Assembly (NCBI GenBank): GCA_965224025.1
Contig: CBDCYE010000001.1
Location: 1 to 64,000 of the forward strand
DNA: 64,000 nucleotides
From: Candidatus Multivorans sp.
Lineage (GTDB): Bacteria; Acidobacteriota; Thermoanaerobaculia; Multivoradales; Multivoraceae
Reading direction: 5' to 3'
The notes under the pieces were generated by a model. It saw nothing but the letters and a program-made list of their open reading frames with translations. It was not told where the DNA came from and searched no databases. The position numbers and the translations under genes were made by a program. Of this stretch, positions 36,752 through 54,559 are shown piece after piece (the stretch's first letter is position 1; each line of letters starts with the position of its first letter).

Positions 36752-37993
<1,242 letters not shown>

Positions 37994-38002
37994 CGCTATC
38001 CC

Positions 38003-38032
38003 TTGACACCCCAAGGCCTTCCGGTGTCTAAT
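38003..38032 (+). promoter_or_regulatory. Sigma70-type promoter of the aro-his-trp operon
   Basis: TTGACA-N18-TCTAAT just after the fabF stop. Confidence 0.65.
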
Positions 38033-38076
38033 CCGGCGTTCCGGTACATTCCGGTCCCCGGAACCCGCACCACGCC

Positions 38077-38172
38077 ATGAACTCACAGGCCAGCGACAGC
38101 GCGATCACGATGCCCACGGTTACCGGCGTCGTTGCGCAGGCTTGGTGGGCTCACGGTCACGGCAAGGGCTGA
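38077..38172 (+). CDS. Putative Trp/His leader peptide MNSQASDSAITMPTVTGVVAQAWWAHGHGKG
   Basis: ATG at 38077 (alternative at 38110); TGG TGG at 38143-38148; CAC GGT CAC at 38152-38160; TGA at 38170. It lies between the promoter and the first biosynthetic gene. Confidence 0.75.
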   Translation: MNSQASDSAITMPTVTGVVAQAWWAHGHGKG

Positions 38173-38221
38173 AAACCGGGCCAAGTCCCGGTAAGTGGTC
38201 CGGGACGAGGGTGAGCGAGAA

Positions 38222-38247
38222 GACCTCCTTCCGGATCGAAGGAGGTC
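38222..38247 (+). promoter_or_regulatory. RBS-sequestering attenuator hairpin
   Basis: GACCTCCTTC-cggatc-GAAGGAGGTC. The 3' arm holds AAGGAGG 8 nt before TTG 38254. There is no U-tract. Confidence 0.7.
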
Positions 38248-38253
38248 ATCAGT

Positions 38254-39849
38254 TTGAGTTCGACACCCGAGAATCCGCCGCGAGCCACCCCTGCGGAGGT
38301 CGCGCGGAGCGCAACGTATACGGAGGTTGCGCGGAGCGCAACGTCTACGGAGGTCGCCCGGAGCGCGACCTTGGTGGCGTCGTTGACGGAGGCACCGAGT
38401 GCGTCCGGCGACGAGTTGCGCGCGCTGTCGGAGCGCGCCGACTGTCTCGAGGTGCGTGCGGATCTGGTCGGCGAGATCGACGCCGACTGGCTGCGGGAGC
38501 GTTTCGCGGGCGAACTGCTGTACACCCTGCGCAGCGAGGCGGAGGGCGGCCGCGGACCGGTCGATGCGGGTCGGCGGGCGGAGCGGCTGGTTGCGGCCCG
38601 CGGGTACGACCTGGTCGATCTCGAGGCCGACCGCGATCTGGGCCGCGAGTTGCTCGCTTCGATCGAGCCTGTCAGGCGGCTGGTGTCCTGGCACGGCCGC
38701 GGCGCCAGTCTCAAGGCGCTGCGAGGCCGGCTCAGACAGATGTCGGGCGCGGAGGCCCGGCTCTACAAGCTCGTTACTGCCCCGAAGAGGTCCGGTGAGG
38801 AGTTGGCGCCGCTCGAACTGCTGCTCGACACCGGCCGGACGGATGTCGCCGCGTTCGGGGTGGGCGCCATCGGCGCCTGGACCCGGCAGGTGGCGCCGCG
38901 GCTCGGAGCGCCGTGGGTCTACGGCGCCGCGGGTGCGCTGGTTGCCGCCCCCGGTCAACCGTCCATCGAGCGGCTGCGGGCCGACTACGGCCTGCCGAAC
39001 CTGCCCCGCGTGTCGCGGCTGTTCGGCGTCGTCGGGCACCCGGCGGCGCACAGCCTGTCGCCACGGCTCCACAACGCCGGCTACCTCGACCGCGGTGAGG
39101 CCGCGCTCTACGTCGCCTTCGACGCGCCTTCCTTCGAGACGTTCTGGAGCGAAATCGCGCGGAGCGACTTCTTTGAGCGTGCGGGCATGCCCCTCGGCGG
39201 CCTGAGCGTCACCGCGCCGCACAAGGCCGCGGCTCTGGCCGCTGCCGCGGAGGCCGGCGACCTGGCGGGTCGAGCCGGGGGTGCGAACACCCTGATCCCG
39301 GGCCCGGGCGCCGCCGCCGACAGGCAATGGCGGGCAGAGAGCACGGACCCGGAGGGCGTCGTCGGTCCGCTGCGCCGGCACGGCGTCGAGCTTTCGGGCC
39401 GCACTGCCGTGGTCATCGGCGCCGGCGGCGCCGGCCGGGCCGCGGCGGCGGGCCTGACGGCCGCGGGCGCGGACATCGCGCTCACAAACCGCACCGTCTC
39501 CAGCGGCCAGGCAGCCGCGGAGTCGCTCGGCGTTGCCTTCGTTCCGCTCGACGAGCTGGCGCCCGGCGCGTTCGACGTGGTCGTCAACGCCACCTCGCTC
39601 GGCCACGATTCCGCGGACCCGCTTCCCTGCGATCCGAACGCGCTGCGAGCCTCGGCTGCCGCGGTGGATCTGGTCTACGGCGGCGGACCGACGCCCTGGA
39701 GCCGGTCCCTCGCAGCGCGCGGCGTTCGGGTCGTGGACGGCCGGGAAGTGTTGCTGCACCAGGGTCTGGCGCAGTTCGAGGCGATGACGGGAAAGCCGCT
39801 GCGGTTCGAGGTCGGCGCCGCGGCCCTGGGATTGGAGACGCCGCGATGA
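38254..39849 (+). CDS. aroDE: Bifunctional type I 3-dehydroquinate dehydratase / shikimate dehydrogenase (AroD-AroE)
   Basis: LEVRAD, YTLRS..EGG, VDLE, SWH, APGQ, then HSLSP, SVTAPHK, GAGGAGRA, VNATSLG and DLVY. Confidence 0.88.
   Translation: MSSTPENPPRATPAEVARSATYTEVARSATSTEVARSATLVASLTEAPSASGDELRALSERADCLEVRADLVGEIDADWLRERFAGELLYTLRSEAEGGRGPVDAGRRAERLVAARGYDLVDLEADRDLGRELLASIEPVRRLVSWHGRGASLKALRGRLRQMSGAEARLYKLVTAPKRSGEELAPLELLLDTGRTDVAAFGVGAIGAWTRQVAPRLGAPWVYGAAGALVAAPGQPSIERLRADYGLPNLPRVSRLFGVVGHPAAHSLSPRLHNAGYLDRGEAALYVAFDAPSFETFWSEIARSDFFERAGMPLGGLSVTAPHKAAALAAAAEAGDLAGRAGGANTLIPGPGAAADRQWRAESTDPEGVVGPLRRHGVELSGRTAVVIGAGGAGRAAAAGLTAAGADIALTNRTVSSGQAAAESLGVAFVPLDELAPGAFDVVVNATSLGHDSADPLPCDPNALRASAAAVDLVYGGGPTPWSRSLAARGVRVVDGREVLLHQGLAQFEAMTGKPLRFEVGAAALGLETPR
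38294..38370 (+). repeat. 27-bp coding tandem repeat x~3 (EVARSATx)
   Basis: CGGAGGTCGCGCGGAGCGCAACGTATA / CGGAGGTTGCGCGGAGCGCAACGTCTA / CGGAGGTCGCCCGGAGCGCGACC. Confidence 0.88.
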
Positions 39850-40859
39850 AGATCTCCGCCGGCCTGCCGACCGGAGTGTCGGCTGCCCTCTTCGACAGCG
39901 TGAAGCGGCGCCGCCGGCTGGAGGCGCGCCTGACGGCGCTGCTCGAGGAGCGCGGCTTCGGCGAGGTGTTGCTGCCCATCCTCGACTACTTCGAGCCTTA
40001 CCGGCCCCTGCTCCAGGGGCGCCGGCTGGAGCAGCTCTACCGGTTCGTCGACCGGGACGGTCAACTGCTCGTGCTGCGTGGCGACTTCACGCCGATGCTC
40101 GCGCGGTTGCTCGCCCCCCACCTGGACGACCTGGAACTGCCGCTGCGTCTCTACTACCGCGGCGACGTGGTGCGGCATCAGCCTCTACGTCCCGGCCGGA
40201 TGCGCGAGTACTCGCAGTTGGGCGCCGAGCTGCTGGGCGGCGACCGCACCGAGGCGGACGAGCGGACGCTGACCCTGTTCCTCGACCTGCTGCGTCAGGC
40301 CCGCGGCGACGCCCCTGGGAAGGTCTCGCCCGCATCCGGCGAAAGGAATGACGCCGCGCTCCGGGTCGTCCTCGGCGTCGCCGGTGCGCTCGACGAGCCC
40401 CTGCTCGCCGCGGCAGGAGATGGCGCCGCCGGTGAACTCGCTTTGCGGATAGCGAGCCGCGACCGGCAGGCCGCGCGCCGGGCCGGTCTCGCCGATGTCG
40501 TAGAGCGCGGCTATCCGGAAGACCTCTCCGTGCTCGGGGACGCCGCCGCTGCGGTGACTGAACTGCTCCTGCTCCGCGACCGGCTTTGTGCTGAGTACGG
40601 CGATCTCGGCATCGAGGTCGAGGTCGATCTCGCCGAGTTCGCCGCCGCCGCGCTCGACCCGAGGATCGGCGTTTCCGCGGGCCCGCGCGGCTACTACGAC
40701 GGCCTCATGTTCGCGGCCTACGCGCCGGGTACGGCCCTGGCCCTGGGTGTCGGCGGTCGGTACGACAGGGTGTTCCGGTCGCTCAGCGGCGACTGCTCGG
40801 CGGTCGGCTTCTCGTTCGGTCTCGACCTGTTGACCAAACTGGCGGAGGGCCCGGCATGA
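39846..40859 (+). CDS. hisZ: ATP phosphoribosyltransferase regulatory subunit
   Basis: LYRFVDRDG, LRGDFT, RLYYRGDV, REYSQLGAEL, YYDGLMF and GGRYD; adjacent to short-form hisG. Confidence 0.9.
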   Translation: MKISAGLPTGVSAALFDSVKRRRRLEARLTALLEERGFGEVLLPILDYFEPYRPLLQGRRLEQLYRFVDRDGQLLVLRGDFTPMLARLLAPHLDDLELPLRLYYRGDVVRHQPLRPGRMREYSQLGAELLGGDRTEADERTLTLFLDLLRQARGDAPGKVSPASGERNDAALRVVLGVAGALDEPLLAAAGDGAAGELALRIASRDRQAARRAGLADVVERGYPEDLSVLGDAAAAVTELLLLRDRLCAEYGDLGIEVEVDLAEFAAAALDPRIGVSAGPRGYYDGLMFAAYAPGTALALGVGGRYDRVFRSLSGDCSAVGFSFGLDLLTKLAEGPA

Positions 40860-41494
40860 TCACGTTCGGCCTGCCGAAGGGACGCAACCTCGGACCGGCG
40901 CGCGACGCGCTTGCCGCCGCGGGCATGGGTCTCACCGATCTCGATTCCTCCCGCCTGCGCCAACGCTTCGGAGGCGTTGGGGTGCTGGGGGTCGAGGTCG
41001 AGGTGCTGCTGCTCAAGGACTGGGACCTGCCGCTCTATGTCGAGCACGGGATCGTCGACTGCGCGATCATAGGCTCAGACGTGCTGGAGGAGACCCAGCC
41101 CGACGTTTTCCAGCCGCTGCGCCTCCAGGACGGCCGTAGCCGCCTGTCGTTGATTGCCGAGACGCCGGAACTGCCGCGGCGGAGCGGCCAGCTCCGCGCG
41201 GCGACCCGCTATCCGGCGTGGGCGGCGCGGCTTCTTGCCGCCCGCAAACTGCACGTCGAGGTGCTGAGCCTGACCAGCTCGATCGAACTCGGGCCGTTGC
41301 TCGACCTGACCGACATGGCGGTCGACATCGTGCAGACCGGCGCCACGCTCAGAACCCACGACCTGCACGAGGTCGAGGTGCTGGCCCAGGTGGCGCCGAC
41401 GTTCGTGGTCAACCGGGCTTCGTTCCACGCCCACCGGCGCCGGTTGAGCCGGCTGCTGGGCGCGCTCGAAGAATCGGGGGCCGCCGGTGACTGA
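40856..41494 (+). CDS. hisG: ATP phosphoribosyltransferase (short form)
   Basis: LPKGR, DLPLYVEHG, ATRYP, SIELGP and DIVQTGATL. Confidence 0.92.
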   Translation: MITFGLPKGRNLGPARDALAAAGMGLTDLDSSRLRQRFGGVGVLGVEVEVLLLKDWDLPLYVEHGIVDCAIIGSDVLEETQPDVFQPLRLQDGRSRLSLIAETPELPRRSGQLRAATRYPAWAARLLAARKLHVEVLSLTSSIELGPLLDLTDMAVDIVQTGATLRTHDLHEVEVLAQVAPTFVVNRASFHAHRRRLSRLLGALEESGAAGD

Positions 41495-42848
41495 GGTCCG
41501 TAGCGGGGGAGCGTTGCAGGTCCTGGCGGCGGACAGTCGTGCCGGGCGGGAGCGCCTGGAACTGCTCGACCGGCGGGGCCGGGGCGGTATCGCGGCCGAG
41601 ATCGGCCATGCCGCCGCGGAGATCATAGGCCGGGTCCGCAGCGGCGGCGACGCGGCCCTTCTCGAGGCCGTCCGCCGCTTCGACGGCTTCGACGCGCCGT
41701 CGGCCGGCGCCTTGCGGCTGGACGACGCCAGCCCGCATCCGGCTTCTGAACGCATCGACCCCAACGTACTCACCGCCATCGACCGCGCACGGGCCGCGAT
41801 CGAGGTCTACCACCGGGCACAGCCGCACGGTCCGGGTGTCCAGCGCCTGGAACGGGACGGCGTGTCGATCGAGGAGCGCCGGCTGCCGATCCGCCGGGTC
41901 GGGATCTACGTGCCGGGTGGGCGGTTCCCCTATTCCTCTACGGTGCTGATGACCGCGGTGCCGGCACGGCTGGCGGGCGTCGAGGAACTCGTCGTCGCCA
42001 CGCCGCCCCGGGCCTACCTCGAAAGTCCAGTGCTGCGGCACGTGCTGGACCTGGTCGAAGCGGACGAGATCTGGGGCATGGGCGGCGCGCACGGCGTCGC
42101 GGCCCTTGCCTACGGCACCGAGTCGGTCCGGGCGGTCGACCTGATCGCCGGGCCCGGGAACGCCTGGGTAGCGGCCGCGAAGCAGCACGTGGCGGGCGAC
42201 GTCGGCGTCGACCGCGCCGCGGGTCCGTCCGAGGTCGTCATCGTGCCGACCGACGGCGCTCCGGCCGGCTGGGTCGCGGCCGACCTGCTGGCGCAGGCGG
42301 AGCACGATCCCCTGGCGGTCGCGGTCCTGGTCACGGACTCCGCGGCGCTTGCCGATCGGGTTGCGTCGGAGGTGGACCGGCAGCTCTCGCTGCTGCCGAC
42401 CCGAGACACCGCCGCTGCCGCGCTCGAAGCGCACGGCGCGGCGTTCGTCGCGGACGACCTGGACGGTGCGCTCGCGCTGGCCGAACGGTTGGCGCCCGAG
42501 CATCTGCAACTGATCGGCGCCGCCGCGGAAGCGCGCGCGGACGAGATGCGCAATGCCGGCGCGGTGTTCGTGGGCGCTTCGTCGCCGGTGGTGTTCGGGG
42601 ACTACGTGGCCGGACCGAGCCACGTACTGCCCACGGGCGGCACCGCGCGCTTCGCCTCCGGTCTCGGGATAGAGGATTTCGTGCGGCGTAGTCACACGGT
42701 TCGGTTCTCCGATGAGGCCTCGAGGGCCTGGGCCGGCGCCGCCGAGACCCTGGCGGCTACCGAGGGCCTGGCGGCCCATGCCGCGGCGGCCAGGTTGCGC
42801 CTCGGTGGGGGAGTCGGTGGGCAAAACCGCCGGGAGGCCGAGCCATGA
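41487..42848 (+). CDS. hisD: Histidinol dehydrogenase
   Basis: GIYVPGG, AGPGN, AGPSE, QAEHD, APEHL and GPSHVLPT. Confidence 0.95.
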   Translation: MTEVRSGGALQVLAADSRAGRERLELLDRRGRGGIAAEIGHAAAEIIGRVRSGGDAALLEAVRRFDGFDAPSAGALRLDDASPHPASERIDPNVLTAIDRARAAIEVYHRAQPHGPGVQRLERDGVSIEERRLPIRRVGIYVPGGRFPYSSTVLMTAVPARLAGVEELVVATPPRAYLESPVLRHVLDLVEADEIWGMGGAHGVAALAYGTESVRAVDLIAGPGNAWVAAAKQHVAGDVGVDRAAGPSEVVIVPTDGAPAGWVAADLLAQAEHDPLAVAVLVTDSAALADRVASEVDRQLSLLPTRDTAAAALEAHGAAFVADDLDGALALAERLAPEHLQLIGAAAEARADEMRNAGAVFVGASSPVVFGDYVAGPSHVLPTGGTARFASGLGIEDFVRRSHTVRFSDEASRAWAGAAETLAATEGLAAHAAAARLRLGGGVGGQNRREAEP

Positions 42849-43930
42849 GTGCCTCCGCCCAGGGCGCCGGCGCCTTCGTCAGGCCCGAGTTCCGCCGCCT
42901 GTCCGCCTACTCGCTCGACCGGGTGACATACCGCTACCGGCTCGACCAGAACGAGGCGCCGTGGGATCTGCCGCGGGCGCTCAAGCGCGAGGCGCTGGCG
43001 CGTCTGGCCGAGCGCACCTGGGCCCACTACCCGGACTTCCACGCCGAGCGTCTGCGGCGTCTGCTCGGTGACCTCAACGACTGGCCGGCGGAGGGCGTGC
43101 TGGTCGGAAACGGTTCCGGCGAGCTGCTGACGACTGTGCTCGAAGGCGTCGTTCGCCCCGGCCAGGAGGTGCTCGCCTGCGAGCCGTGCTTCAGTCTCTA
43201 CGAGACCTTCGTCCGGCGCGCCGCGGGCGTGCCGCGGTTCCTCGAACCGGCGCCGGACCTGGCGCTGCAGACCGGCGAACTCCAGGCCGAGATCGGGCGC
43301 GACCCGAGGCGGCCGGTGATCCTGTGTACGCCGAACAACCCGACCGGCACGGCGGCGGATCCCGGCACGGTGGAGCGCCTTCTGGATGCGCTCGAGGCGC
43401 CGCTGCTGCTCGACAACGCGTACGGTGAGTTCTGCCGCCACGACTACCGGCCGCTGCTGCGCCGCCACTCGAACCTGATCGTGTTCCGGACCCTGTCCAA
43501 GGCCTGGTCCCTGGGCGGCATCCGCCTCGGCTACCTGCTGGCGGACTCGGAACTGGTGGCGGAGCTGATCAAGGTCAAGCTGCCCTACAACATCGGTCAA
43601 GCGGCGGCGGTGATCGGCGAAGTGGCCGTCGAACACGCCGACCGGCTTCTGCCGCGCGTCGCCCTGGTGCGGGCGCGCCGGGAGCAGTGGATGGTCATGC
43701 TGCGGGAGTTCGGCTTCGAGGTCCTCGACTCGGAGGCCAACTTCCTGCTCGCGCGCCATCCCCGCTGCGCCGGGATCCGCGACGGTCTTGCCGCCGGGGG
43801 TGTGCTGGTGCGCGACGTGAGCCGCTATCCGGGCCTGGCCAACTGCCTGAGGATCGGAATCGGCGGTGGTCCGGCGCTGCGCGCGACGCGACGCCTCCTG
43901 ACGGAGATGAACGTGGGAGAGATGCCATGA
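42845..43930 (+). CDS. hisC: Histidinol-phosphate aminotransferase
   Basis: LDQNE, GNGS, PNNPTG, DNAYGEF and RTLSKAW. Confidence 0.93.
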   Translation: MSASAQGAGAFVRPEFRRLSAYSLDRVTYRYRLDQNEAPWDLPRALKREALARLAERTWAHYPDFHAERLRRLLGDLNDWPAEGVLVGNGSGELLTTVLEGVVRPGQEVLACEPCFSLYETFVRRAAGVPRFLEPAPDLALQTGELQAEIGRDPRRPVILCTPNNPTGTAADPGTVERLLDALEAPLLLDNAYGEFCRHDYRPLLRRHSNLIVFRTLSKAWSLGGIRLGYLLADSELVAELIKVKLPYNIGQAAAVIGEVAVEHADRLLPRVALVRARREQWMVMLREFGFEVLDSEANFLLARHPRCAGIRDGLAAGGVLVRDVSRYPGLANCLRIGIGGGPALRATRRLLTEMNVGEMP

Positions 43931-44526
43931 GACGAGCGTCCATCGATCGCAAGACGTCCGAAACCCATGTCCGTGCCGACCTGTCGCTCGACGGCGGCGC
44001 TTGCCGGCTTGATGTGCCGAACGGTTTCTTCTCGCACATGCTGGACGCCCTGACGCGCCACGGCGGTCTGGGGCTCGATCTGGAAGCCCGGGGCGATACC
44101 GACATCGACCTCCACCACACGGTGGAGGACGTAGGGCTGGTGCTTGGCGACGCGCTGCGGGAGGCCCTCGGCGAGCGCGCCGGAGTGCGGCGCTTCGCCC
44201 ACGCTTTCGCACCGCTCGACGAGGCGCTGGCGCGCGCCGTCGTCGACCTCTCCGGCCGCGGTTCCTTCCACTTCCGGCTGCCCGCGGAACTGGAGCAGGC
44301 CTGGGTCACGACCGAGTTTCCGCTCACCCTGATGGGTGACTTTTTCGGCGCCTTCGCCGACCGCGGACGGCTGACGCTGCACCTGGATGTCCTTTGCGGC
44401 CGCAATCCGCACCATGTCGCGGAGGCGTCGTTCAAGGCGGTGGCTCTGGCGCTGCGTGACGCGGTGTCCCTGCGGACGGGAGGCGATGCCGAGGCGCCGA
44501 GCACGAAGGGCAGCCTGACGGCATGA
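43927..44526 (+). CDS. hisB: Imidazoleglycerol-phosphate dehydratase
   Basis: FFSHML, HHTVEDVG, PLDEAL, NPHHVAE and PSTKG. Confidence 0.95.
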   Translation: MRRASIDRKTSETHVRADLSLDGGACRLDVPNGFFSHMLDALTRHGGLGLDLEARGDTDIDLHHTVEDVGLVLGDALREALGERAGVRRFAHAFAPLDEALARAVVDLSGRGSFHFRLPAELEQAWVTTEFPLTLMGDFFGAFADRGRLTLHLDVLCGRNPHHVAEASFKAVALALRDAVSLRTGGDAEAPSTKGSLTA

Positions 44527-45209
44527 CCGGAGCGGCGAGCAAAGCCCCGGCGAGCAGCGCGACGGTGGTCGACGCCGGCGTCGGCAACATCGGCAACCTG
44601 GTGCGGGCGCTCCGCCACCTGAGGTCCGAGGTCGAGATCACCTGCGACCCGGCGGTGATTCGAGACTCTCGCTGCCTGGTGCTGCCGGGCGTCGGCGCCT
44701 TCAGGCCGCCGCGCGAGGTACTGCGCGGCGCGGCCGAAGAGGCGATCCGGACCGCGCTCGAAGGCGGCGCGTACCTGCTCGGCATCTGCATCGGCTACCA
44801 GCTCCTGTTCGACAGCAGCGAGGAGTTCGGGATGACGGACGGTCTCGGCTTGCTCGCGGGCCGCGTCACCGAGCTTCCGGGCGGCGTGCCCCTGCCGCAC
44901 ATCGGCTGGAACCGCGTCTTCGGCACAGCAGACCATCCCCTGCTCGCCGGCGCAGCCGAGGACGACCACTACTACTTCGTCCACTCCTTCGCGCCCCAGG
45001 ACGTGCCGGAGGAGTCCGTGCTGGGCCGCTGCCGGCACGGCCGCAGTTTCCCCGCGATCACGGGCCGCGGCCGCATCGCGGGTACCCAGTTTCATCCCGA
45101 GAAGAGCGGCGCCGCCGGCCTGCGGCTGCTGCGCAACTACCTGACCTGGGCCGAGGACCTGGCTCACGGGACAGAAGGAGGCGACGGTGCAACTGCTGCC
45201 GGCGATTGA
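44523..45209 (+). CDS. hisH: IGP synthase glutaminase subunit
   Basis: LPGVGAF, GICIG, PHIGWN, YFVHS and QFHPEKSG. Confidence 0.95.
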   Translation: MTGAASKAPASSATVVDAGVGNIGNLVRALRHLRSEVEITCDPAVIRDSRCLVLPGVGAFRPPREVLRGAAEEAIRTALEGGAYLLGICIGYQLLFDSSEEFGMTDGLGLLAGRVTELPGGVPLPHIGWNRVFGTADHPLLAGAAEDDHYYFVHSFAPQDVPEESVLGRCRHGRSFPAITGRGRIAGTQFHPEKSGAAGLRLLRNYLTWAEDLAHGTEGGDGATAAGD

Positions 45210-46008
45210 TCTGCGCGGCGGTCAGGTCGTGCGTCTCGAACGCGGCGACGACGGGCGGCGCACGGTCTACGACGCCGATCCCGGCAACGCGCTCCGCCGC
45301 TACCGCGAGGCCGGGGTGTCCCGCATCCACGTCGTCGACCTGGACGCGGCGTTCGGCGGCGTTCCCCAGCGCGAACTGGTCGGGGAACTGGCGCGGCAGG
45401 CAGCGCCCGGCGGCATCCAGCTCGGCGGCGGCCTGCGCGACCGCGAATCCGTCGAGTGGGCGTTCGCGGCGGGCTGCGAACGGGCGGTGGTGACCTCCCT
45501 GATCGTCCGCGACTTCGACGTGTTCGCCGGCCTCTGCCGCCACTACCCGGGGCGCATGGTGGCGGCGCTCGACATCGACCGTGGCGAAGTGCGGCTGGCG
45601 GGCTGGACCGAATCGGCCGACCGCTCGCCGGCGACGCTGTGCGGGCAACTCGCCGGTCTGCCGATCGCGGCGGTGCTGGTCACCGACATCTCGCGCGACG
45701 GGATGATGCAGGGTCCCAACATCGACCTGGCCTGCGAGATCGGTGTCATGGCCGGCGCGCCGGCGATCCTCTCGGGCGGCGTCCGCTCGGCCGCCGATCT
45801 GGAAGCCGCGGCCCGGCGGCCCGAACTCGAAGCCGCAATCGTCGGCCGCGCCCTCTACGACGGCTCGCTCGGCCTGGAAGAGGCAATCACCGCCTGCGCC
45901 GGTTCGGCGGACGCCGGCGGGGTCGCCGGCGCACCAGGCGGACCGGACGGTGCCTCGCTTCGCCCTGGGAACGCGGGCATCCTGCCCGCTTCCGGGAGAA
46001 CGCCGTGA
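45187..46008 (+). CDS. hisA: ProFAR isomerase
   Basis: PAIDL..GQVVRL, HVVDLD, GGGLR, TDISRDG and SGGV. The C-terminal tail is repeat-derived. Confidence 0.93.
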
Positions 46009-46796
46009 GAGCCACCATCGAGCCGACCGGCCTCACCCGCCGCATCATCCCCTGTCTGGACGTGGCTGCCGGGCGGGTGGTCAAGGGCGTCCAGTTCAAG
46101 AACCTGACCGATCACGGCGACCCGACCGAGGCCGCGGCCCGATACGCCGCCGAGGGCGCCGACGAGATCGTGTTCCTCGACATCACCGCCGCGCCCGAGC
46201 GCCGCGACACGGACCTCGACTGGGTGCGCCGAACCGCCGAGCAGGTGTTCATTCCGCTCAGTGTCGGCGGTGGCGTGCGTAGCACAGGCGACGGCCGCAA
46301 GTTGCTGCTAGCCGGCGCCGACAAGCTGGGGATCAACACCGCCGCGGTCGCCGAGCCCGAGCTGCTGACGCGTCTCGCCGAGCGCTTCGGGAGCCAGTGC
46401 GTCGTGCTCTCGGTCGACGTCAAGCGGCGGCGTGAAGAGGGAGCGGGCGGCCCGCGCTGGGAGGTCGTCACCCACGGCGGCCGCACGCCGACCGGGCTCG
46501 ACGCGCTGGAGTGGATCGAGAAGGGAATCGAACGGGGCGCCGGCGAGATCCTGCTCACCAGCATCGACAGCGACGGCATGAAGAGCGGCTACGACCTGGA
46601 ACTGCTGCGGCGGGCGTCGGCGCTGTCGCCGGTGCCGGTCATCGCCTCCGGCGGCGCCGGCACCCTGGAGCACCTGGCCGAGGCCCTGGAAACCGAGGCC
46701 GCGGCCGTGCTCGCCGCGTCGATCTTCCACCAAAAGGCGTTCTCGGTAGGCGCGGTCAAGGAGTACCTCGGCCGCCGCTATCCGATCCGTATGTGA
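46005..46796 (+). CDS. hisF: IGP synthase cyclase subunit
   Basis: [31 protein letters not shown] and ASGGAG. Confidence 0.96.
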
Positions 46797-46881
46797 TGAG
46801 GAATCGAGGAGACGCCACTGGGTACGCCGGCGCCCTCGCCGGCATCCGGGCTGAGACGGCATAGCAATCAACCGACAAACG

Positions 46882-47553
46882 ATGACGAAGGACAAACAGA
46901 TGACATCCCCAGCCATCGACCCCGCGGCGCTCACCTACGACGACCGGGGCCTGCTGCCGGTCGTGGTCCAGGACGTGCTCTCGGGCGCGGTGCTGATGCT
47001 CGCCTACGCCAACCGGGAGGCGGTGGAACTCACGCTCGCCACCGGCGAGGCCCACTTCTACAGCCGCTCGCGGCAGCAGTTGTGGCGCAAGGGAGCGACC
47101 TCGGGCAACACACTGGCGGTGGTCGAAGTGCTCCAGGACTGCGACCGGGACGCGCTCCTGGTGCGGGCGCTGCCGGCCGGTCCGGCCTGCCACAACAACA
47201 CGAGGAGCTGCTTCGAGCCGAACGCCGCCGAGTTCGAGCTCGGCTGGCTGGCGCGTGTGCTCGCCGAGCGGGCGTCGGCGTCGCCGGAGGAGAGCTACAC
47301 CGCCCGTCTCCTCGACCAGGGAGTCGACCGCATCGCGCGCAAGGTCGCGGAGGAGGCGGGCGAGACCGTGATCGCCGGCGTCCGGGCCGACGCGGAGCCC
47401 GAGTCGGCGGAGCGGCGCGCCGATCTCGCGGCCGAGGCAGCCGATCTCACCTACCACCTGCTGGTGCTGCTGCAGGCGACCGGCGTCGGGATCGCCGGCG
47501 TGGCCGCCGAGTTGGGCCGCCGCCATCAGCAAGCCGGGGGAACGCAGCCATGA
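46882..47553 (+). CDS. hisIE: Bifunctional PR-AMP cyclohydrolase / PR-ATP pyrophosphatase
   Basis: YSRSR, WRKGATSG, DCDRD, GPACH, SYT, KVAEE and ADLTYH. Confidence 0.95.
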   Translation: MTKDKQMTSPAIDPAALTYDDRGLLPVVVQDVLSGAVLMLAYANREAVELTLATGEAHFYSRSRQQLWRKGATSGNTLAVVEVLQDCDRDALLVRALPAGPACHNNTRSCFEPNAAEFELGWLARVLAERASASPEESYTARLLDQGVDRIARKVAEEAGETVIAGVRADAEPESAERRADLAAEAADLTYHLLVLLQATGVGIAGVAAELGRRHQQAGGTQP

Positions 47554-49043
47554 GCCGGCCCGCATCCGCCATCGCTCACACGCGGGAGTTCCTGGCCGAC
47601 ACGTCGACGCCGCTCGGCGTCTACAGCAAGCTGGCCGCGCATGCGGAGGGCGACTCCGGGGCGCGGCGCTTCCTGCTCGAGAGCATCACCGGCGGCGAGC
47701 ACGTGTCGCGCTACAGCTTCCTCGGCGCGAGCCCGTCGCAGGTCTGCCGCGTGTACGTCGACCGGCTGGAGACCCTTGACCTCCATCGTCGCGGTGAGGT
47801 TCAGATCGAGCCCGGCGATCCGCTGCCGAAGCTACGGCGCCTGCTCGACGGTGTGACCGCCGATCCGGCGCCGCCGTTGCCGTTTGCCGGCGGCTGGATC
47901 GGCGCCTTCGGCTTCGACGCGATCCGGCTCGTCGAGCCGTGTCTGGTCGACCATCCGGCCGGCCGCCCACCCGACCCGTTCGGCCTGCCGATCGCCACCC
48001 TGGCCCGCTTCGACGACGTGCTCGTGTTCGATCACGCCCGCCAGCGGATCGTCGCGGTGGCGAACGAGATCACGGGCGAGACGACGGCGCCGGAGGCCGA
48101 AGCGCGGCTCGATGAACTGCAGGCGGTCCTCGAGAGCCGCGGCGAGGCCACGGCGGCCCGGGTCGAGGACCTGGGTGTCAAGGCAGAGACCGCCGCCCCG
48201 ACGCTGAGCGACGAAGAGTACGGCCGGGCAGTGATGGCGGCGAAGGAGTACATCGCCGCCGGCGACATCTTCCAGGTTGTGCTGGCGCGCCGCTGGACTC
48301 TCGACCTGGACGTGTCGCCGGCGACCCTCTACCGGGCGCTGCGCCTGGTCAACCCGTCGCCGTACATGGTGCTCTTCGAGGCGCCCGAGGCGTCGTTGAT
48401 CGGCGCTTCGCCGGAGATGCTGGTGCGGCGCACGGGGCGGCGCCTGGAGGTGCGGCCGATCGCCGGCACCCGCCCCCGCGGCAGGACCGCGGCGGAGGAC
48501 CGCGCTCTGGCCGAGGAACTGATGGCCGACCCCAAGGAGCGCGCGGAGCACGTGATGCTGGTCGACCTGGGGCGCAACGACCTCGGACGGGTGGCGTCGC
48601 CGGGCGGGGTCTCGGTGGCCGACTTCATGGTCATCGAGCACTACAGCGACGTGATGCACATCGTCAGTTCGGTCGAGGCGGAGCAGTCCGCCGCGGCCGG
48701 AAACGGCGCCGGCTCGGCCCTCGATGCTCTCCTGGCCTGCTTCCCGGCCGGCACGCTGTCCGGGGCGCCGAAGATCCGCGCGGTGGAGATCATCGACGAA
48801 CTCGAGCCGGAGGCGCGCGGGATGTACGGGGGCTCGGTGGGCTACTTCTCGTTCGGCGGCGACATGGACACCTGCATCACGATCCGCACCCTGACCCTGG
48901 CGAACGGCGAGGCCTCGATCACCGCCGGGGCCGGCATCGTCGCCGATTCCGACCCGGTGCGCGAGGCGCAGGAGACCCGGGACAAGGCCGCGGCGCTGCT
49001 GCGGGCGGTGGCGCTGGCGCGTGACCTGGAGGGCCGGGCATGA
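47550..49043 (+). CDS. trpE: Anthranilate synthase component I
   Basis: FLLES, GDIFQVV, NPSPYM, PIAGT, EHVMLVDLGRND and GAPK. Confidence 0.94.
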   Translation: MSRPASAIAHTREFLADTSTPLGVYSKLAAHAEGDSGARRFLLESITGGEHVSRYSFLGASPSQVCRVYVDRLETLDLHRRGEVQIEPGDPLPKLRRLLDGVTADPAPPLPFAGGWIGAFGFDAIRLVEPCLVDHPAGRPPDPFGLPIATLARFDDVLVFDHARQRIVAVANEITGETTAPEAEARLDELQAVLESRGEATAARVEDLGVKAETAAPTLSDEEYGRAVMAAKEYIAAGDIFQVVLARRWTLDLDVSPATLYRALRLVNPSPYMVLFEAPEASLIGASPEMLVRRTGRRLEVRPIAGTRPRGRTAAEDRALAEELMADPKERAEHVMLVDLGRNDLGRVASPGGVSVADFMVIEHYSDVMHIVSSVEAEQSAAAGNGAGSALDALLACFPAGTLSGAPKIRAVEIIDELEPEARGMYGGSVGYFSFGGDMDTCITIRTLTLANGEASITAGAGIVADSDPVREAQETRDKAAALLRAVALARDLEGRA

Positions 49044-49618
49044 TCCTCGTCATCGACAACTACGACTCCTTCACCTACAACCTGGTCCAGATGTTCGGCG
49101 GTCTCGGCGCCGAACTCGAGGTGGTGCGCAACGATGTCGAGAGCGTGCCGGACCTGCTGGCGCGCGACTCGGAAGGCATCGTCCTGTCGCCGGGGCCGGG
49201 TCGGCCGGAGGACGCGGGAGTCTGCATCGACCTCCTGCGGGCGAAACCCGACGTGCCCCTGCTCGGCGTTTGCCTGGGACACCAGGCGCTCGGCTCGGCA
49301 TTCGGCGGCACCGTCAGCCGGGCAACGGTGCTGATGCATGGCAAGACCTCCGAAGTCGAGCACGGGGGGGTTGGTCTGCTGTCCGGCCTGCCGTCGCCCT
49401 TCGTCGCCACGCGCTACCACTCGCTGGCGGTCGAGGAGGAGAGCCTGCCGGCACAGCTTCAGCCGCTGGCCTGGAGCGAAGACGGAACGCTCATGGCGAT
49501 GCGGCACCGGGAACTGCCCTACTGGGGCGTCCAGTTCCATCCGGAGTCGGTGCTCACGCACACTGGACCGCAGCTACTTCAGAACTTCCTCGATCTGTGT
49601 GGAGAGGCCTATGACTGA
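49040..49618 (+). CDS. trpG: Anthranilate synthase component II
   Basis: IDNYDSFTYNL, SPGPG, GVCLGHQ and QFHPES. Confidence 0.94.
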   Translation: MILVIDNYDSFTYNLVQMFGGLGAELEVVRNDVESVPDLLARDSEGIVLSPGPGRPEDAGVCIDLLRAKPDVPLLGVCLGHQALGSAFGGTVSRATVLMHGKTSEVEHGGVGLLSGLPSPFVATRYHSLAVEEESLPAQLQPLAWSEDGTLMAMRHRELPYWGVQFHPESVLTHTGPQLLQNFLDLCGEAYD

Positions 49619-50651
49619 TCTCGACCTTTCGACCCTGTTGCGAACGGCGATCGCCGGCGAGGACCTTCCCGCCACGACAGTGGAGGAGCTGTTCGGCCGG
49701 CTGATGGACGGCGAACTGTCCGAGGTGTGGAAGAGCGCGTTCCTGGTTGCGCTGGCGGCAAAGAGTGAGTCGGTGGGTGAGATCGCCGGCGCCGCACGGG
49801 CGATGCGGGCGCGGGCGGCGCGCGTGCCGCACACGAGTTCCGGCGTGATCGACACCTGCGGCACCGGCGGCGACGGCCGCGGCACGTTCAACATCTCGAC
49901 CGCGGCCGCCCTGGTGGCGGCTGCGGGCGGCGCGCGGGTGGCCAAGCACGGCAACCGCGCCGTGTCGAGCCGCTCCGGTTCGGCGGACGTGCTCGACGCT
50001 CTCGGCGTGCAGCTCTCGGGCGACACGGAGGCGCTCGGACGCTGCCTCGACGAGGTCGGCATCGCCTTCCTGTTCGCGCCGATGCTCCACCCGGCGATGG
50101 CCCAGGTCATGCCGGTGCGGCGCGAACTCGGCGTGCGCACGCTGTTCAACGTGCTGGGGCCCTTGACGAACCCGGCCGGGTCGAAGCGTCAGTTGATCGG
50201 CGTCTTCGCGGCCGATCTGGTCGAAGAAGTCGCGCACGTGCTGCGGGAACTCGGAAGCGAGCACGCCCTGGTCGTCCACGGCGACGGTCTGGACGAGATC
50301 ACGACCACCGGGACGACCGGGGTCGCCGAGGTCCGTAACGGCGAGGTCCGCACCTTCGAAGTTCATCCACGCGACTTCGGGATCGCCGCGGCGTCGCCGG
50401 ACGACCTGGTCGGCGGCGCCCCCGAGAGGAACGTCGAGCTGATGCGCGGCGTGCTCGATGGCGGCGGAGGCGCCCTCGCGGACATCACATGTCTCAACGC
50501 CGGGGCCGCGCTCTTTGTCGCCGGCAGGGCGGACAGCCTCGCCGCCGGTGTCGCCGCTGCGTTCGAGGTTCAGCGCTCGGGAGCGGCGGCCAGGAAGCTC
50601 GAAGAGCTCGTCGGCTGGGCCGGCTGGGACGACGGAGGCGACGGAGACTGA
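49611..50651 (+). CDS. trpD: Anthranilate phosphoribosyltransferase
   Basis: DTCGTGGDG, FNIST, KHGNR and GPLTNP. Confidence 0.96.
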   Translation: MTDLDLSTLLRTAIAGEDLPATTVEELFGRLMDGELSEVWKSAFLVALAAKSESVGEIAGAARAMRARAARVPHTSSGVIDTCGTGGDGRGTFNISTAAALVAAAGGARVAKHGNRAVSSRSGSADVLDALGVQLSGDTEALGRCLDEVGIAFLFAPMLHPAMAQVMPVRRELGVRTLFNVLGPLTNPAGSKRQLIGVFAADLVEEVAHVLRELGSEHALVVHGDGLDEITTTGTTGVAEVRNGEVRTFEVHPRDFGIAAASPDDLVGGAPERNVELMRGVLDGGGGALADITCLNAGAALFVAGRADSLAAGVAAAFEVQRSGAAARKLEELVGWAGWDDGGDGD

Positions 50652-50655
50652 GGCC

Positions 50656-51585
50656 GTGTCCGAGGTTCCAGACATCCTGCGGCGCATCTGCGAACAGCGC
50701 CGCCGGCGCGTGGCCGTCGCTGTGAACCCGGGCTCCGCCCCTGGGAGCGCGGGCGTCTCGCCCGCATCCGCCTCCCCCCGCCTCGCCCCCGACGCCCCGG
50801 GCCGCCGTTTCCTCGACGCCATCTCCACCCGCCGTGGCCGCGCCGTAGTCGCCGAGATCAAGATGGGATCGCCCAAGCTCGGCGACCTCCGCGGCCGCTT
50901 CGACCCGGTCGCGCGGGCCGAGACCTACGCCGCTGCCGGCGCGGCCTGCCTGTCGGTGGTGGTCGAGCCGGACCACTTCTACGGCAGCTACGAGCTGCTC
51001 GCCGAATGCACCGCCGCGTCCGGCCTGCCCGCGGTGGCGAAGGACTTCGTGGTCTCCGACATGCAGCTCGAGTGGGCGCGCGATGCCGGTGCCTCCGCAG
51101 TGCTCCTGATCGCCGCCCTCTACGACGCCGCGGAGTTGCGGCGGCTGGCGGCGCTCGCCCGGGGCTTGGGCCTCGTGCCCCTGATCGAGACCCACGACGA
51201 CGAGGACTTCGAGAAGCTGGCCCCCCTGGGAGCGCAGGCCGCCAGCCCGCTTCCGGCCCTGGGAACGCGGGCTTCCAGCCCGCATCCGGGTCGCCCGCAA
51301 CGCGGCAGTGAGGCCCCAGACTGGGAACTCGTCGGCATCAACAACCGCGACCTGCGCACGTTCGAGGTCGACCTGGAACGAAGCGCCGACCGCGTCGGCC
51401 GCCTCCCGGCGTCGGCTCTCAAGGTCGCCGAGTCGGGGATTCAAACGGGCGCCGATGTCGCCAGGCTGCGGCAGGCCGGCTTCGACGCCTTCCTCATCGG
51501 CGAGCGCCTGGTGCTCTCCGGCGATCCGGCCGCCGCGCTCGCCGAACTACTGGGTGCGCCGGCAACGTCGAAGGTGACCCCATGA
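50656..51585 (+). CDS. trpC: Indole-3-glycerol-phosphate synthase with two repeat-derived insertions
   Basis: AEIK..SP, KDF, GINNRDL, AESGI and LIGE. Confidence 0.92.
51224..51289 (+). repeat. Two tandem REP-like units inside trpC
   Basis: CCCTGGGAGCGCAGGCCGCCAGCCCGCTTCCGG followed by CCCTGGGAACGCGGGCTTCCAGCCCGCATCCGG. Confidence 0.85.
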
Positions 51586-52219
51586 AGGTCAAGATCTGCG
51601 GCGTCACCACGCCCGTCGACGCCCGGCTCGCCGTCGATCTCGGCGCCGACTTCATCGGCCTCAACTTCTACCGGCCGAGCCCGCGCTGGATCGACATCGA
51701 GCAGGCCGCACAGATCCGGGCTGCCGTCGGGGACCGGGCGCAAGCCGTCGGCATCTTCGTCAACCCCACGCGGGAAGAACTCGAAACAGCCGACCGCAGG
51801 GTCGGCCTCGACTTCCTGCAGTTCAGCGGCGACGAGAGCCCGGAACTCCTGGCCGAGTTCAAGGACCGCGCCATCCGCGTGCGGCGCGTCGGCGGCGTGG
51901 CCGCCGCGCCGGGCCGGATTCCGGACGAGGACTGCTGGGCGGTCCTGATCGACCGCGCCCACGACCGGCTCTACGGCGGTTCCGGCGAAAGCTGGGACTA
52001 CGCGGCGGCGGCCGATCTCGCTCTGGCGCCGGCCGGCGGCAGGGCGCGCCGGGTCTTCATTGCCGGCGGCATCGGCCCCGGCAACGTTGCGGAGGTCGTC
52101 GCGGCCGTGCCCGGCGCCTACGCCGTCGACACCTGTTCAGGTGTCGAGTCCTCGCCCGGACACAAGGACCGCGCCAAGCTGGAGCAACTGTTCGCCAACC
52201 TCGCAGAGGGAGCAGCACG

Positions 52220-52223
<4 letters not shown>
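51582..52223 (+). CDS. trpF: Phosphoribosylanthranilate isomerase
   Basis: VKICG, SPR, GGSG, AGG and SGVE..PGHKD. Confidence 0.93.
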
Positions 52224-53499
<1,276 letters not shown>

Positions 53500-53503
<4 letters not shown>

Positions 53504-54330
53504 CCCCCCTCCGCAAGCGCCCCTCACGCAGCGGAGCCATCGCCGCCGCCTTTGCCCGCTGCTCCAGGCAGAAGCGCGCCGCCTTCATCCCCTTCCTCGT
53601 CGCCGGCGATCCCAGCCTCGAAGCCACGCCCGACCTGCTGCGCGCCCTCGTGGCCGGCGGCGCCGACGTGATCGAGCTCGGCGTTTCCTTCTCCGATCCG
53701 ATCGCCGACGGTCCCACGATTCAGCGCGCTTCGAACCGGGCTCTCGCCGCAGGTTCCTCGCTCAGCGCGGTGCTTGGGATCATCGAGCGCCACCGGGAGG
53801 AGCTGGGCGTTCCGATCGTCCTGTTCACCTACTACAACCCCGTCCACGCCCGCGGCGTTGCGACCTTCGCCGCCAAGGCCGCCGACAGCGGGGTCGACGG
53901 CGTGCTCTGCGTCGACCTGCCGCCCGAGGAAGGCCTGCGCGAACTGCAGCCGGCCCTCGTGGAACGCGGCGTCGACTCGATCTATCTGATCGCCGCCACC
54001 AGCACGAAGGAGCGCATCGACCGAGCCGCGGCGGCGTCGAACGGCTTCGTGTACTACACCGCGCGCTCCGACGTCACCGGCGAGCGCGAGGACCTGATCC
54101 CCACCCTGGCCCGGGAAGTGAAGCGGGTGCGACGGCGGGTCCGCCTACCGGTCGCCGTCGGCTTCGGCATATCGACCCCCGAGCAGGTCGAGGAAGTGGC
54201 TGCGGTCACCCACGGCGTCGTCGTCGGCAGCTCTCTGGTCCGCCTGGTCGAGGAGAACGCCACGGAACCCGGCTTGGCGGCGAGGCTCGAACGCCGCGTC
54301 GGCGAGTTGACGGCGCCGCTGCGGCGCTGA
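53500..54330 (+). CDS. trpA: Tryptophan synthase alpha chain
   Basis: [31 protein letters not shown] and VGFGI. Confidence 0.95.
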
Positions 54331-54559
54331 CACCCGCCCCGCGGGGGGCGCGGCGCGGAGTGGCGCGGCCGTTCCGGTGTCCGCCGAGCGGAGAGCGGGC
54401 GACAATGTGGCAGATCTGGCCGGTCTTGGGAGAATTTGACCGAAATCCGCTAAATGGCGGCCGGTTCTCTTCCGTATCTGTCCCTAGAGTATTTCGCGGA
54501 GTCCACACCGCAACCACCACCTTGAAGGAGGATGGCCAAGTGCAGACCGAGGATGACGA

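Follow-up and report, generated by a model that had tools for sequence, protein, structure and literature searches.

The 64,000-nucleotide (nt) stretch analyzed here (contig CBDCYE010000001.1, positions 1–64,000, hereafter the window) comes from 'Candidatus Multivorans', a member of the Acidobacteriota class Thermoanaerobaculia known from metagenome assemblies alone. It contains a 17-gene operon, aroDE-hisZGDCBHAFIE-trpEGDCFBA (38254–54330; Pfam domains and tblastn gene order), which is very probably controlled by a ribosome-mediated leader-peptide attenuator that reads codons for both tryptophan (Trp, W) and histidine (His, H). The evidence for this element and its switch is computational throughout. 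Upstream of aroDE, a promoter-like pair of hexamers is followed by a 31-codon open reading frame (ORF), in which a WW pair and an HxH motif both fall within the final nine codons, and by a hairpin whose 3′ arm carries AAGGAGG, 8 nt ahead of the aroDE TTG start codon (38254); the downstream operon encodes the his and trp pathways. The TTGACA-N18-TCTAAT promoter, the ORF with its Trp and His codons, the hairpin and the ribosome binding site that a first-pass annotation had picked out from the sequence letters of this DNA are all present where it placed them.

The leader ORF and its conservation

The element comprises the following features, in which SD denotes the Shine-Dalgarno sequence, anti-SD the hairpin arm that pairs with it, and e0 to e3 the further pairing blocks:

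38003–38008, + strand: −35 hexamer TTGACA, invariant in 20 aligned genus loci
38027–38032, + strand: −10-like hexamer TCTAAT, separated by an 18-nt spacer from the −35 and aligned with CAGTAT in most relatives
38077–38172, + strand: leader ORF of 31 codons with an ATG start, MNSQASDSAITMPTVTGVVAQAWWAHGHGKG*, tail WWAHGHGKG, stop codon UGA
38143–38148, + strand: tandem Trp codons TGG TGG; WW in 24/26 genus loci
38152–38160, + strand: His-Gly-His codons CAC GGT CAC (His at 38152–54 and 38158–60); HxH in 25/26 genus loci
38161–38168, + strand: e0, GGCAAGGG, within the final leader codons; may pair with e1 in the absence of a ribosome, a weak prediction without covariation (RNAalifold, 32 genus sequences)
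38175–38180, + strand: e1, ACCGGG, 3 nt past the stop codon; would be covered by a ribosome at the stop, pairs with e2 in stalled-ribosome folds
38185–38192, + strand: e2, GTCCCGGT, with e1 or e3 as alternative partners (e2:e3, 7 base pairs (bp))
38197–38210, + strand: e3, GGTCCGGGACGAGG, an SD mimic; partner of e2 in the OFF state and of the anti-SD arm and loop (38224–38237) in the ON state
38222–38247, + strand: 10-bp hairpin GACCTCCTTC-CGGATC-GAAGGAGGTC, a candidate sequestrator or degenerate terminator with AAGGAGG (38239–45) in its 3′ arm

A DNA search with a 307-nt intergenic query matched every one of the other 24 genus genomes and none of 16 from other genera of the same order. Of 26 genus loci, 25 retain the leader ATG, the exception lying in genome G003, where the 5′ part is different; the departures from WW are VW and WR, and the single departure from HxH is RGH. 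The short ORF and the codons on which the earlier proposal depended are therefore conserved in relatives. By comparison, the N-terminal two thirds of the peptide vary freely within the genus, and indels inside the ORF measure 9, 12 or 24 nt, as against 1–2 nt in the flanking non-coding sequence; a co-occurring strain in a DNA run carries a 9-nt insertion within the ORF at 38120/21. In-frame indels and the retention of the ATG and of the Trp and His codons are what a coding sequence would be expected to show, and we predict that the leader ORF is one. A degenerate W-x-HGHGKG-stop pattern matched 32 times in a genome collection of 185,579 species; 31 of these matches are the same element, all within the lineage of the window, and the one in Kiritimatiellia is a chance match. 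The folding of the leader region is only modestly better than that of shuffled sequence (z = −2.2; 6/200 shuffles equally good), and we judge the element to be beyond chance because it is conserved in relatives, not by its folding score.

Within the genus, the last nine leader codons are near-invariant even at third positions, as are the ~100 nt 3′ of the Trp codons. The latter would also suit an RNA or DNA element bound by a protein or metabolite (a repressor operator, the site of a TRAP-like protein or a riboswitch), in which the short ORF is not the sensor, and so would a run of TCCGG repeats, present in 6 copies in 38003–38256 against 0.78 expected from the window, with four copies 8–12 nt apart over the promoter spacer and the 5′ untranslated region (UTR; 38020, 38032, 38040 and 38050). 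A DNA-binding regulator might use these repeats as its operator; alternatively, they might offer e3 additional partners, as happens in the minimum free energy (MFE) fold of the full-length RNA. A bound element of this kind is nevertheless highly improbable as the main explanation: the region has no Rfam match at E-values up to 10, the conserved blocks coincide with the arms of competing helices whereas loops and linkers vary, the ORF keeps its frame through indels, and the match between leader codons and operon content described below would be left unexplained. A repressor could still act in addition to the attenuator.

In the aberrant G003 locus (L022; contig C1, ~2189237–2189768), the leader ATG and the 5′ two thirds of the ORF are replaced by unrelated sequence, and the promoter part of the query is matched ~340 nt further upstream; an insertion may have separated promoter from attenuator. 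Elsewhere, two copies of the element (L041 and L056) lie on one chromosome (OZ220688.1), and the L041 copy looks degenerate, with no nearby ATG, an e3 of GTCCAGGAC and altered hairpin arms.

Competing helices and their predicted output

Downstream of the leader stop codon, ACCGGG (38175–80) is complementary to CCCGGT (38187–92), and GTCCCGG (38185–91), which overlaps the latter, is complementary to CCGGGAC (38200–06). Together with the hairpin and a long pairing between e3 and the anti-SD arm, these blocks give four helices:

e1:e2, 38175–80 with 38187–92: −10.1 kcal/mol
e2:e3, 38185–91 with 38200–06: −14.4 kcal/mol
SD hairpin, 38222–31 with 38238–47: −18.3 kcal/mol
e3:anti-SD, 13 bp, 38197–205 with 38229–37 and 38207–10 with 38224–27, one C-C mismatch: −20.9 kcal/mol

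The e3:anti-SD helix is thus more stable than the hairpin that it would displace, and the pairing of GGACGAGGGT with the anti-SD arm that the first-pass annotation had suggested proved to be real, longer than claimed, and kept over six genera with compensatory changes. The two complete configurations, OFF (e2:e3 with the SD hairpin, −32.7 kcal/mol) and ON (e1:e2 with e3:anti-SD, −31.0 kcal/mol), are mutually exclusive and near-isoenergetic.

We propose that transcription would start downstream of TTGACA/TCTAAT and that the 31-codon leader would then be translated. With charged tRNA-Trp and tRNA-His both plentiful, the ribosome would reach the UGA codon and cover e1, upon which e2:e3 would form and the anti-SD arm would close on the SD arm, leaving aroDE untranslated; in relatives with a U-tract, the OFF state would probably end transcription at the SD hairpin. 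With either charged tRNA scarce, the ribosome would stall 10–30 nt before the stop codon with e1 free, so that e1 could pair with e2 and the freed e3, as an SD look-alike, could take the anti-SD arm and loop and leave the true SD open. A shortage of either amino acid would then derepress the operon, as in multivalent repression. It is leader translation, stalling, the level of action (SD sequestration as opposed to termination or Rho) and the OR-gate behavior that we infer in this scheme.

Co-transcriptional folds, in which the RNA ends before the SD arm and a ribosome footprint is masked, gave the expected switch in the window and likewise in a typical member of the genus: a mask at the Trp or the His codons led to e1:e2 and e3:anti-SD, whereas e1 was hidden and e2:e3 formed when the mask extended to 13 nt beyond the first stop-codon base. 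When a 14-nt stop-codon mask was applied to 24 homologues, with terminators that were in part chosen by an automatic procedure, perhaps not always correctly, the terminator was favored by at least 4 kcal/mol more in 18 of them, compared with a mean shift of at most 1.0 kcal/mol for shuffled linkers (100 per homologue); the effect was matched by at most 4/100 shuffles in 14 of the 24 homologues and by 6–46/100 in the remaining 10.

The helices are also supported by pair counts over an alignment of 14 sequences from six genera, set against slid controls and 500 shuffles. The ON helices are paired in 87.6% of cells and the OFF helices in 92.0%, levels that the slid controls (at most 68.8%) and the shuffles (0/500) do not reach for either structure, and each structure contains four pairs that changed on both sides. 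Taken singly, e3:anti-SD is paired in 92.3% of cells with three pairs changed on both sides, the SD hairpin in 92.1% with four such pairs, and e2:e3 in 91.8%. Among the genus sequences, RNAalifold additionally predicts a weak e0:e1 helix and a GUGG:UCAC pairing of the Trp codons with the second His codon, which perhaps account for the third-position invariance of the last nine codons. One further pairing in the first-pass annotation, between GCTCAC over the first His codon (38149–54) and GTGAGC (38211–16), we rejected as a conserved helix: both blocks are present and do pair in the ribosome-free MFE fold of the window, but the pairing is found in 84.4% of cells with no compensatory change, the same as in shuffles, and GTGAGC lies in a variable linker.

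In the window, the hairpin lacks the U-tract of an intrinsic terminator, as the first-pass annotation had said, and is followed by TCATCAGTTT; most of the genus has TCTTCCCGTTTG at this position. In families f8, f9, f19 and f14 and in genus g17 of f1, 6–8 of the 10 bases after the SD hairpin are T (e.g., GGAGGTTTTGTTTTG), and the ancestral device therefore resembles an intrinsic terminator that also contains the SD. By this comparison, the genus of the window appears to have lost most of its U-tract, and its hairpin is predicted to be a poor terminator; the output here is more likely SD sequestration, to which Rho may contribute by acting on aroDE RNA that is not translated. RNA library X20 contains one 129-nt contig (depth 6.1, a relative's sequence) that covers 38122–38245 and extends no further into aroDE, and RNA run X19 contains two low-depth pieces inside aroDE; contigs from RNA libraries cannot show starts, ends or levels and may include DNA, and these pieces are not used as evidence here.

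Leader codons and operon content across Thermoanaerobaculia

A search for aroDE orthologues succeeded in 114 of the 121 class genomes; for 53 genomes from outside the genus, we then inspected the sequence preceding the best match. A W+H leader was scored where a short ORF had Trp and His codons both within its last 15 codons and lay 10–210 nt before the aroDE match, with the following outcome by family:

f1 (other genera): 2/2 loci
f10: 1/1
f9: 1/1
f8: 1/3
f19: 7/7
f20: 8/9, the ninth having only Trp in its tail
f14: 0/10
f5: 0/4
f2: 0/1
f17: 2/14, both probably chance
f13: 1/1 flagged, in a frame without a start codon, and left uncounted

Sequences or tails of these leaders include GWWGFVHHHVE*, PWAWRTHHHCSVS*, GWWHVHTEG*, LHWHHWTHN*, MILVSRHWHAHHN*, SRHWHAHHN* and THAHRHSTWAWPERR*. 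Apart from their Trp and His content, the peptides outside the genus are mutually unrelated, yet they occur at the same position in five other families and are followed by two or three overlapping hairpins, the final one containing the SD. Their ORFs, 11–42 codons long, are uncalled by gene finders, and each of these leaders likewise has TTGACA upstream. In seven loci of f19, f20, f14 and f9 (L117, L119, L128, L113, L152, L153 and L078), the leader ATG is 7–10 nt past the −10, suggesting leaderless or near-leaderless translation of the leader.

These peptides also bear on a different mechanism, in which WWAHGHGKG would act as an arrest peptide that senses a free ligand in the ribosome tunnel and stalls at the stop codon, as TnaC does with Trp. 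The near-invariance of the last nine codons, third positions included, while the rest of the peptide drifts, would suit such a mechanism, as would the UGA stop codon, since a ribosome held there would cover e1. Outside the genus, however, the C-termini have nothing in common save their Trp and His content, and UGA, UAG and UAA all occur as stops; RNA pairing (GUGG:UCAC and e0:e1) could account for the third-position invariance; and a hold at the stop would give the OFF state, so that excess ligand would repress, which control by tRNA charging already achieves. We therefore consider an arrest peptide very unlikely.

Leader codon content follows operon content across the class. With gene order outside the genus read by tblastn with the 17 proteins of the window, 11 of 12 fused aroDE-his-trp operons have a W+H leader, and none of the six stand-alone aroDE genes has a leader. 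Where the pathways are split, in f14, hisZ-hisG-hisD operons carry His-only leaders (MNTNFAQTRHHHHHHVM* and MSIRAAQQHHHHHI*) and operons of an aroDE paralogue followed by trpE carry Trp-only leaders (MNAPRNWWWFRRS* and MNASRNSWWFRRS*). A leader ending ...ARHHHHHHA* precedes hisZ in G025, and G032, which has an aroDE-trp operon without his genes, has a separate his operon with the leader ...AHLHHLHHGH.... The first-pass proposal of a dual Trp and His leader on a fused operon is thus supported by W+H leaders in five other families and by single-codon leaders on split operons. In genus g41 of f20, all five genomes have an operon reduced to aroDE-hisD-trpEGDCFBA, and their leaders keep WxW with 0–2 His codons nearby, compared with 2–3 in f20 genomes that have all his genes; this thinning of His codons appears to track the loss of his genes, and as a single lineage it is at most suggestive.

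The same comparison speaks to the possibility that the attenuator has one input, in which case one kind of codon, Trp or His, would do the regulating and the other would be incidental or a relic. The window has just two codons of each kind, the aroDE-trp leader of G032 (RWRSHVHLHGA*) holds three His codons with no his genes in its operon, so codons can persist without a cognate gene, and the e0 block predicted by RNAalifold would be left uncovered by a Trp-stalled ribosome and covered by a His-stalled one. Both codon kinds nevertheless recur in unrelated leaders of six fused-operon families, split operons have pure His or pure Trp leaders, the truncated-RNA folds give the ON state for Trp and His stalls alike, and the g41 leaders, where hisD is the only his gene kept, point the same way as one suggestive lineage. 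A single input is accordingly an unlikely alternative, if somewhat less so than the arrest peptide, and we retain the two-input attenuator.

Several observations weigh against the Trp-plus-His attenuator. A consensus promoter and terminator scan of the region called neither; the promoter is missed because position 2 of TCTAAT is C, not the conserved A of a −10, and the terminator because fewer than 5 T lie within the 8 bases 3′ of the stem. The leader has only two Trp and two His codons, and, as the first-pass annotation had also noted, no clear ribosome binding site: there is no SD 5′ of its ATG (GCACCACGCC-ATG), and in the genus the ATG lies ~45 nt from the −10 behind a 5′ UTR without an SD. 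Compensatory changes in the hairpin, which the first-pass annotation had looked to, appear across six genera but not within the genus, whose sequences are so alike that none of the 31 RNAalifold pairs covaries; only five sequences, all from other genera, supply the covariation, and one member of the alignment was itself the source of the structure tested. Six of the 24 homologues, one of them a typical genus member, show little effect of the mask at equilibrium. A switch on the full-length RNA that is purely thermodynamic can be rejected: the ribosome mask works in truncated RNA, as expected from the first-pass annotation, but in full-length equilibrium folds the SD hairpin stays closed under every mask (probability of an unpaired SD, 0.000) and e3 pairs with CCCGGA in the 5′ UTR. 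The switch would therefore be only kinetic (co-transcriptional), or would require the 5′ UTR to be occupied. Among the operons, G031 is fused yet has no W/H leader, the aroDE-trp leader of G032 still has one Trp and three His codons, and in G028 fabF immediately precedes an aroDE-trp operon that lacks a leader.

Reading the series jointly, we hold tentatively, with slightly more doubt than belief, that leaders of a common architecture within one class carry His-only, Trp-only or Trp-plus-His codons according to whether his and trp are split or fused, with His codons thinning after his loss; that loss of the U-tract in 'Ca. Multivorans' moved control from termination to SD sequestration; and that several families translate the leader from leaderless or near-leaderless mRNA.

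Two further observations concern these genomes. G096, G028 and G110, which are 97–100% complete, have no hisF homologue by search with the HisF of the window at E-values up to 1e-20, and, going by this HisF query only, these and the g41 lineages may be histidine auxotrophs. In f14, where a genome has both a His-only and a Trp-only leader (L152/L153 and L145/L146), the two share near-identical terminator arms (AACCTCTTC...GAAGAGGTTTTTG) as well as GCGCCCC/GGGGCGC blocks. Their overall identity of 47–49% is too weak for a claim of common origin, which is possible only.

Known systems and genomic surroundings

An Rfam cmscan of 37500–38800 at E-values up to 10 returned four unrelated weak hits and no Trp_leader, His_leader, T-box or riboswitch. 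By logic, the element is closest to several well-studied attenuators. In Salmonella and E. coli, the hisL leader contains a run of seven His codons and six segments, A to F; it resembles the element in its His codons and its longer chain of alternating helices; the element would also have six segments if e0 is counted, but its two His codons are split by Gly and preceded by two Trp, and no model matches it. Multivalent attenuators are known from thrL (Thr and Ile) and from the ilvGMEDA and ilvBN leaders (Ile, Val and Leu), in which shortage of any of the amino acids derepresses. One leader there carries codons for more than one amino acid, the same logic as proposed here, except that those amino acids share linked pathways and enzymes.

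As in E. coli trpL (Rfam Trp_leader), tandem Trp codons lie upstream of trp genes, and a stalled ribosome would choose between overlapping hairpins of which the last shuts expression. The element differs from trpL in adding His codons and in controlling aro, his and trp genes together, in having no sequence or covariance-model match to it, in the one extra element of its chain, such that a ribosome at the stop would cover e1, and in a final hairpin that holds the SD of the first gene and lacks a U-tract. Gene content is most similar in the aromatic supraoperon of Bacillus subtilis, ordered aroFBH-trpEDCFBA-hisC-tyrA-aroE, which likewise joins aro genes, trp genes and a his-named gene in a single transcription unit and is attenuated at the RNA level before the trp genes. 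That supraoperon is controlled by TRAP, according to the accessible parts of PMC4027176 and PMC3064811. Its sensor is thus an RNA-binding protein that responds to free Trp, with no leader peptide, and it includes only hisC and not the whole his pathway. Leaders of the trpL kind also precede trpE in Corynebacterium and Streptomyces (PMC4833913, in the part available). Translational attenuation of ermC and cat also hides a downstream SD in a hairpin, which in ermC is opened by a ribosome stalled on the leader ORF (accessible part of PMC2965389); stalling there is induced by a drug, not by scarce charged tRNA. The SD-sequestering T-boxes of Actinobacteria likewise hide the SD, but sense tRNA directly and without an ORF (PMC1262725, available portion).

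According to the available sections of PMC2965389, leader peptides were at that time known only in Proteobacteria, Actinobacteria and a few Firmicutes, and predicted attenuators in Acidobacteria had no assigned function. In the literature searched, which did not cover subscription papers and included the accessible parts of PMC4833913, PMC2965389, PMC1262725 and PMC10138114, neither a Trp+His leader on a fused aro-his-trp operon nor attenuators in Thermoanaerobaculia are described. As far as these searches could show, there is no precedent for the Trp and His pairing, for the fused aro-his-trp operon or for the phylum, whereas the multivalent logic itself is known. Leader-peptide attenuation is a textbook mechanism, with most documented cases in Proteobacteria, Actinobacteria and a few Firmicutes. 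Acidobacteriota gain a well-supported example of such an attenuator, on an unusually large shikimate, histidine and tryptophan operon. The His-only, Trp-only and W+H leaders, with or without U-tracts, are natural variants for studying the minimal codon number, the combination of two inputs and the change from terminator to sequestrator, and the joint reading of the series, if true, would show that the input specificity and the output level of attenuators evolve separately. For annotation, the gain is a set of short leader ORFs that gene finders miss.

Upstream of the element lie fabD, fabG, acpP and fabF (Pfam), with fabF ending at 37993. The operon itself is organized as follows:

38254–39849, + strand: aroDE, a fusion of 3-dehydroquinase and shikimate dehydrogenase, first gene of the operon, TTG start (Pfam DHquinase_I, Shikimate_dh_N, Shikimate_DH)
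39850–47553, + strand: hisZ, hisG, hisD, hisC, hisB, hisH, hisA, hisF and hisIE (Pfam and tblastn order)
47553–54330, + strand: trpE, trpG, trpD, trpC, trpF, trpB and trpA (Pfam and tblastn order)

The TTG start of aroDE is kept within the genus. The genes overlap or are closely spaced, with a largest gap of 85 nt (46797–46881), and because trpE begins at the end of hisIE, a second leader could not fit in front of the trp genes.

The assembly (G000) has a second copy of the leader and aroDE on a chromosome-sized contig, C1 (5.05 Mb; 2383383–2385190, L021), with 79% DNA identity to the window copy in the leader region and 87% protein identity in aroDE. The contig of the window, C2, is small (~95 kb together with C3) and carries an aroDE for which G092 has a 100% identical counterpart; the reported contamination of the assembly is 5.66%, and a DDE transposase is encoded at 55664–57439. 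The contig may come from a second, co-assembled strain, or be a duplicated or mobile segment. Right after the trpA stop codon (54331–54360) is a GC-rich inverted repeat, CCCGCCCCGCGGGGGGCG, without a T-run, a possible operon-end structure. The aroDE N-terminus (38296–38370) contains ~3 tandem copies of a 27-nt unit, ACGGAGGTCGCGCGGAGCGCAACGT.., each encoding 9 amino acids; one contig in DNA run X3 is shorter by exactly 27 nt at 38302, and the extension is present in some relatives and absent from others. This is a copy-number-variable peptide repeat ahead of the dehydroquinase domain.

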